From sequence record MZ617138.1: a stretch of DNA of 410 nucleotides; one strand, given 5' to 3'. How positions within the stretch are numbered: position 1 is the stretch's first letter; every line of letters starts with the position of its first letter. The translations under genes and the position numbers were made by a program. Shown here in pieces: positions 1 to 410 of the stretch. The DNA is from a phage. The notes below the pieces were generated by a model that saw nothing but the letters and a program-made list of their open reading frames with translations, was not told where the DNA came from and made no database searches.

Positions 1-410
1 AGCGGTGATACATTGATGGTCTGCTGACTGCTGATGTGATGATTTTCGACATTGAAGACGCGATGAACCACTATGACGTGGCTGGCGAGTATTCCAACCA
101 GCTAGGTGAGGCTCTGGCCATCGCTGCCGACGGTGCGGTTTTAGCTGAAATGGCTATCCTGTGTAACCTTCCAGCTGCTCCAATGAGAACATTGCTGGCC
201 TAGGCACCGCCTCCGTACTGGAAGTTGGTACTAAAGCTGACCTCAATACCCCGGCTAAACTGGGTGAAGCAATCATTGGCCAATTGACCATTGCTCGTGC
301 GAAGCTGACCTCCAACTACGTTCCTGCTGGCGACCGTTACTTCTACACCACGCCTGATAACTACTCTGCAATCCTCGCGGCTCTCATGCCCAACGCCGCC
401 AACTACGCGA
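1..410 (+). CDS. Major capsid protein, T7 gp10A-like (HK97-fold capsid of T7-like podophage), internal fragment truncated at both window edges. Frame is interrupted twice as sequenced (apparent 1-nt deletions near 11/12 and 183/184), so it may be a pseudogene or carry sequencing errors.
   Basis: Hand translation. Frame 1, 1-11: SGDT. Frame 3, 12-182: IDGLLTADVMIFDIEDAMNHYDVAGEYSNQLGEALAIAADGAVLAEMAILCNLPAAP. Frame 2, 185-409: ENIAGLGTASVLEVGTKADLNTPAKLGEAIIGQLTIARAKLTSNYVPAGDRYFYTTPDNYSAILAALMPNAANYA. These align colinearly with T7 gp10A recalled from memory (TIDGLLTADVLIYDIEDAMNHYDVRSEYTSQLGESLAMAADGAVLAEIAGLCNVESKYNENIEGLGTATVIETTQNKAALTDQVALGKEIIAALTKARAALTKNYVPAADRVFYCDPDSYSAILAALMPNAANYA). 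Spacing between conserved blocks is preserved once one base is restored at each break. No database search was run. Confidence 0.85.

Follow-up and report, generated by a model that had tools for sequence, protein, structure and literature searches.

The 410-nt stretch of DNA analyzed here, referred to as the window, carries on its plus strand (positions 1 to 410) a fragment of the major capsid gene (gene 10A) of a T7-group, Kayfunavirus-like phage, as indicated by megablast, Pfam, phrog, and PDB matches. When compared by megablast to 50,697 phage records, the window matched 223 of them, and every match fell inside the major capsid gene 10A. The best matches were Kayfunavirus phages, including EcoDS1, Penshu1, and K1F, with DNA identities of 92.6%, 92.3%, and 90.8%, respectively. 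At the protein level, the translation obtained after repair of the reading frame (AVITIDGLL...PNAANYA, 137 aa) passed the curated threshold of Pfam PF21703, Gp10A-like (5.2e-49; 167.9 bits, with a cut-off of 27), and matched phrog_267, major head protein, at 2e-35. In addition, the repaired protein is identical at 134 of 135 positions to aa 92 to 226 of a solved capsid chain, PDB 9vvq_I (phmmer, 1.9e-81). The fragment spans about aa 90 to 226 of the ~347-aa capsid protein and lies in three different frames owing to three 1-nt deletions. In the phage annotation of its relatives, the gene order is scaffold gene 9, capsid gene 10, and tail gene 11.

Judged by these matches, the window is part of an ordinary major capsid gene, of the Kayfunavirus type, from a T7-like phage. 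This bears out the T7-like major capsid identity proposed in an earlier inspection of the letters without database searches (the sequence-only reading), and the TIDGLLTADV block named there is indeed present in T7 gp10A (aa 95 to 104). The closest of the 151 loci fetched shares 92.7% identity with the window, and the phage of origin is best explained as a so far unsequenced Kayfunavirus-like phage of the T7 group.

The searches also brought up several irregularities in public records. The capsid gene is annotated inconsistently among phage records, as "hypothetical protein" or "scaffold protein" (KY295894, MK610268, and MT350292). A record named Enterococcus phage EFA-1 shares 91.3% identity with the coliphage-type capsid gene of the window, and its Enterococcus host label is implausible. 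The plasmid collection yielded one match to the capsid fragment, with no listed gene beneath it. This match, at 74.8% identity, lies at 18018 to 18417 of NZ_CP155630.1, a non-mobilizable Yersinia pestis replicon of 38,276 bp filed as a plasmid. By its size and the match, it is probably the genome of a T7-like phage, entered as a plasmid.

As written, the window contains no continuous capsid open reading frame (ORF), and every forward frame is stopped within positions 1 to 27 and again around 164 to 203. Frame 1 reads SGDTLMVC and then meets TGA at 25 to 27, and frame 2 reads AVIH before TGA at 14 to 16. Frame 3 has TGA at 6 to 8, is open from 9 to TAG at 201 to 203, and gives IDGLLTADV... from position 12 onward. 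Positions 1 to 27 are spanned by no open forward frame, and from about 167 onward frame 2 alone stays open to the end of the window. Retranslation reproduced all the stops and frames that the sequence-only reading had listed for positions 1 to 27. On its own, the stop pattern in this region means little, as a stop in each of the three frames within 27 nt is found, by our estimate, in ~4% of random sequence, (1-(61/64)^9)^3. The break matters because the capsid gene is conserved: all 46 aligned relatives, taken from IMG/VR and metagenomes, encode H-T-E-K-[V/T]-I-[T/N]-I-D-G-L-L in a single frame at this site. A gene on the minus strand was rejected, with nothing in its support; the ORFs there are all short (53 aa or less) and lie opposite the conserved capsid frame.

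Alignment with the relatives accounts for the interrupted frame. Window positions 5 to 405 (401 nt) pair with 404 nt in relatives by megablast, so that three gaps are needed, and a MAFFT alignment likewise requires three 1-nt gaps. None of the aligned relatives shares any of these gaps. Along the window, the capsid reading runs in frame 2, then in frame 1 for two bases, then in frame 3 (12 to 178), and then again in frame 2 (179 to 409).

Two of the gaps fall at positions 9 to 12, near the 5' end of the window. Here, the codons of relatives are AAR GTG ATT ACC ATT GAT GGT, which encode K V I T I D G, and those of the window are GCG GTG AT- AC- ATT GAT GGT; in the MAFFT rows, GTG ATT ACC ATT GAT GGT of the relatives stands opposite GTGAT--ACATTGATGG. 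Codon usage at each position was counted in the 37 relatives whose DNA identity to the window exceeds 83%. The first deletion (plus strand, 9 to 10) removes the third base of an Ile codon, which is ATT in 21 and ATC in 16 of the 37; if the lost base was T, it cut a TT run to T. The second (plus strand, 11 to 12) removes the third base of a Thr codon that is ACC in all 37, turning CC into C. With the Ile wobble base absent between 9 and 10, the capsid reading enters in frame 2. The upstream capsid segment (plus strand, 2 to 9) accordingly reads gcg gtg at(.), or A V I, an assignment based on the alignment, the codon table of the relatives, and a simulation (p=0.0028). As written, this incoming frame runs into the TGA at 14 to 16 on the plus strand (gcg gtg ata cat tga), and translation from it would give a capsid protein that breaks off around residue 95 of ~347.

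The sequence-only reading had instead proposed a single 1-nt deletion between 11 and 12, with frame 1 (S-G-D-T) incoming. With one base inserted at 11/12, frame 1 does run on into frame 3 as ...DTIDGLLTADV, and T-I-D-G-L-L-T-A-D-V is found in T7 gp10A. To the left of the junction, however, this repair leaves just three matching bases (TAC), compared with eight for two gaps. In the simulation, consecutive matches were counted leftward from the ATT anchor and compared with those of random 11-mers of window composition. With two reference bases skipped, all eight bases at window positions 4 to 11 match, which is equalled by 0.28% of random 11-mers (p=0.0028). With one base skipped there are three matches (p=0.17, chance level), and with none skipped there are two (p=0.21). 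The single-base repair would also replace K-V-I by S-G-D at invariant or nearly invariant positions, with five unique mismatches in 8 nt, whereas all other unique changes in the window are silent. Finally, S-G-D-T-I-D-G-L-L-T is encoded by 0 IMG/VR contigs, compared with 103 contigs that encode E-K-V-I-T-I-D-G-L uninterrupted and served as the positive control.

A single deletion at this site is therefore quite unlikely. The break at 9 to 12 most likely consists of two 1-nt deletions rather than one, a reading that is well supported but, with 11 bases to the left of the break, not proven; on the same comparison, the "SGDT" of frame 1 is spurious, an accident of the letters. What stands of the earlier proposal is the interruption of the ORF and the missing Thr wobble base (ACC in 37/37 relatives); what fails is the count, as another base is lacking at 9/10, along with the incoming frame, for which the alignment, the simulation, and the IMG/VR motif counts favor frame 2. 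The sequence-only reading had suggested checking related genomes for acN att at this position; the Thr codon there is ACC in all 37 relatives, and the Ile codon before it, ATT or ATC, has also lost a base in the window. The single-base repair would thus yield a wrong protein, beginning SGDT... rather than ...AVIT/KVIT....

The first codon of the window differs from that of its relatives. Positions 2 to 4 read GCG (Ala), where all 37 relatives carry AAA or AAG (Lys), and bases 2 and 3 (GC versus AA) are the sole non-silent differences unique to the window. E-A-V-I-T-I-D-G has 0 matches in IMG/VR. Possible sources of this codon are a poor-quality start of the read, another indel, or leftover foreign sequence. 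The codon also bears on the idea that no base is missing at this site at all, in which case the first 9 to 11 bases would be unrelated sequence (a linker, what is left of a vector or primer, or the junction of a chimera) and homology would start only from about position 10 to 12. Positions 2 and 3 differ from every relative, and default blastn local alignments begin at 10 to 11, as such a junction would have it. However, the 8-base gapped match to its left arises in only 0.28% of random 11-mers, and the gap at 178 would be left unaccounted for. We consider a foreign 5' end very unlikely, and keep to two deletions in capsid sequence.

Downstream of the break, the middle capsid segment (plus strand, 12 to 178) is read in frame 3 as IDGLLTADVMIFDIEDAMNHYDVAGEYSNQLGEALAIAADGAVLAEMAILCNLPAA, as supported by translation, comparison with relatives, and the PDB match. 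It ends at the third deletion (plus strand, 178 to 179), which the alignments place at the third base of an Ala codon (GCA in 32 and GCT in 5 of the 37 relatives) and which shifts the reading from frame 3 to frame 2. At this point, the window reads GCT GC- TCC versus GCT GCA/GCT TCC in relatives, and frame 3 then stops at TAG, 201 to 203. The downstream capsid segment (plus strand, 179 to 409) continues in frame 2 as SNENIAGLGTASVLEVGTKADLNTPAKLGEAIIGQLTIARAKLTSNYVPAGDRYFYTTPDNYSAILAALMPNAANYA, on the same kinds of evidence (translation, comparison with relatives, and the PDB match). The record as written carries GTGATACATTGATGG and GCTGCTCCAAT, the intact counterparts of which would be GTGATTACCATT and GCNTCC. 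The broken string has 0 matches in IMG/VR, the JGI metagenomes, and the GTDB genomes. Two clean strings specific to the window likewise have 0 matches in IMG/VR. The gene-position index lists neither of the two products that ORFs in the frame 3 segment could yield.

When the window is read in the repaired frames, the coding sequence appears well preserved. Compared to its closest relatives, it shows 24 to 38 synonymous nucleotide differences and only 1 to 4 nonsynonymous codons, and all seven interior substitutions unique to the window are synonymous third-position changes. With the unique changes silent (7/7) and nearly all differences synonymous, the gene lineage is under strong purifying selection. 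The accumulation of nonsynonymous changes at a near-synonymous rate, which marks a pseudogene, is absent from the repaired window. A gene that had long been frameshifted would not keep a synonymous pattern across three frames.

The silent changes have a bias of their own. Six of the seven (third positions 199, 280, 385, 391, 397, 400, and 409) are changes to C, and four of the silent changes to C cluster in 385 to 400. These changes may represent a lineage-specific shift in wobble bases or a local recombination patch.

These observations have to be reconciled with the three frame breaks. In T7-like phages, gp10A forms the shell and is essential. Because it is essential and the incoming frame stops at the TGA at 14 to 16, a viable phage cannot carry the gene as written. 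We infer that the window is a capsid gene fragment with three technical deletion errors, which is the best explanation of the observed homology, gaps, and silent pattern, and a probable one. Under this explanation, three single bases would be missing from the record, at 9/10, at 11/12, and after 178. The deletions would be base-calling or consensus errors, namely homopolymer undercalls (TT to T and CC to C), and would stem from low-coverage or single-pass sequence rather than from a feature of the phage genome.

All three events are deletions, and they show the signature of indel errors: the indels are unique to the record, and the coding sequence is otherwise conserved. Deletions 1 and 2 lie in likely TT and CC runs, and deletion 3 lies in a run only in the case of a lost T or C at the wobble position. 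However, about 43% of the bases of the gene are in runs of at least 2, so a homopolymer context in three out of three cases is not significant, and this context is a weak, at most suggestive, sign. Sequencing errors are a documented cause of spurious frameshifts and premature stops in assemblies of small genomes, as described in PMC12007338. Some points run counter to technical errors of this type. Real replication slippage also yields deletions in short homopolymers, and a model of deletion errors only leaves GC versus AA at positions 2 and 3 unexplained.

The deletions could be real and mark a defective phage genome (a dead particle, a non-viable variant in a population, or cloned or relic phage DNA) in which slippage at short homopolymers very recently inactivated the capsid gene. 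A real template of this kind is possible: the sequence as it stands contains the gaps, and the loss of bases from short homopolymers is a natural class of mutation. However, with three frameshifts within 170 nt and essentially no excess of nonsynonymous change, all of them would have to be extremely recent. T7-like phages are lytic. Host-resident relatives of the capsid gene were absent from the representative genomes of 185,579 bacterial and archaeal species (GTDB) and from 5,426 complete E. coli genomes, and there is consequently no sign of capsid genes residing and decaying in host chromosomes. Real deletions are on this balance unlikely, though they are the main rival reading. Should the bases truly be missing, three frameshifts in so essential a gene would point to a genome that is defective or recoded in an unusual way, and nothing was found in support of either.

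A frame change could also be built into the gene. In this scenario, a prfB-like +1 shift at cat tga and a second shift near 178 would allow the full capsid protein to be made from the sequence as written. Two elements of a prfB-like site are present: the TGA at 14 to 16 follows closely in the incoming frame 2, and a Shine-Dalgarno-like GGTGAT, which is complementary to the 3' end of the 16S rRNA, lies shortly before it at 4 to 9. Relatives carry AGTGAT or GGTGAT at this site as part of AAR GTG ATT, and the resemblance to a Shine-Dalgarno sequence is most likely a coincidence. In addition, re-pairing from CAU to AUU for a +1 shift would be poor. The shifted arrangement is found in no relative: 46 of 46 are in a single frame, and the motif is intact in 103 IMG/VR contigs. 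Another, unrelated shift would be required at 178, and the second break (frame 3 to frame 2; permitted window, 167 to 203) has no slippery site.

Nowhere in the window is there an X XXY YYZ heptamer or a homopolymer that reaches 5 bases, and in the product of such recoding the invariant T-I of VITIDG would be lost or altered. The -1 frameshift of T7 gene 10 is located at the 3' end of 10A; from the window, this known 10A/10B site is about 350 nt further downstream. The permitted windows at 9 to 16 and 167 to 203 lack a known shift signal. Programmed frameshifting was rejected for want of slippery heptamers and long homopolymers, its lack of conservation in effect refutes it, and we regard its probability as practically nil. 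Real deletions combined with unconventional recoding (+1 at cat-tga and a second shift near 178), or a recently captured, non-functional copy of the gene outside a phage genome, are highly improbable as well. Technical deletion errors remain the preferred reading.

A structured RNA was considered as a candidate feature and rejected. The sole Rfam match, to the archaeal C/D box snoRNA sR3 at window positions 1 to 78 on the plus strand, scored 12.7 bits against a gathering threshold of 41 (E=0.68), which is at chance level.

The biological weight of the frame breaks is small, as the gene itself is a new, ordinary addition to the Kayfunavirus capsid family, with ~92% DNA identity to known phages. 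The practical value of the finding lies in quality control. Single-base deletions amount to ~0.7% of the record, so ORF calls and findings of a "frameshift" or "pseudogene" from the same source should be distrusted.

The closest known counterparts of the window are the gp10A genes of the Kayfunavirus phages EcoDS1 (NC_011042), Penshu1 (MK903281), and K1F (DQ111067), which share 90.8 to 92.6% DNA identity with it over positions 5 to 405. Between these phages and the repaired window protein, 3 to 5 of 137 codons differ, and the VITIDGLLTADV block is the same. Unlike these genes, the window lacks three single bases and has no continuous ORF, and it carries lineage-specific silent changes and a GCG first codon in place of AAA or AAG. 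T7 gp10A (NP_041998; PF21703; PDB 2xvr/3j7v) belongs to the same family as the window and contains KVITIDGLLTADV at aa 92 to 104. However, T7 is a member of another genus, Teseptimavirus, and is more distant, with a phmmer E value of 1.5e-53 versus 1.9e-81 for 9vvq_I.

The programmed -1 frameshift of T7 10A/10B resembles the breaks of the window in being a frame change in the same gene. It differs from them in position, as it occurs at the last 10A codons (EcoDS1/Penshu1 locus, 2256 to 2405), while the window maps to 1501 to 1907. It also relies on a slippery sequence and is conserved, whereas the breaks of the window lack a slippery motif and are unique to the record. Finally, the window matches, in pattern only, the indel errors of error-prone reads and assemblies as described in PMC12007338: in both, isolated 1-nt deletions bring frameshifts and premature stops into a gene that is otherwise perfectly conserved, and most of the deletions are compatible with homopolymer undercalls.
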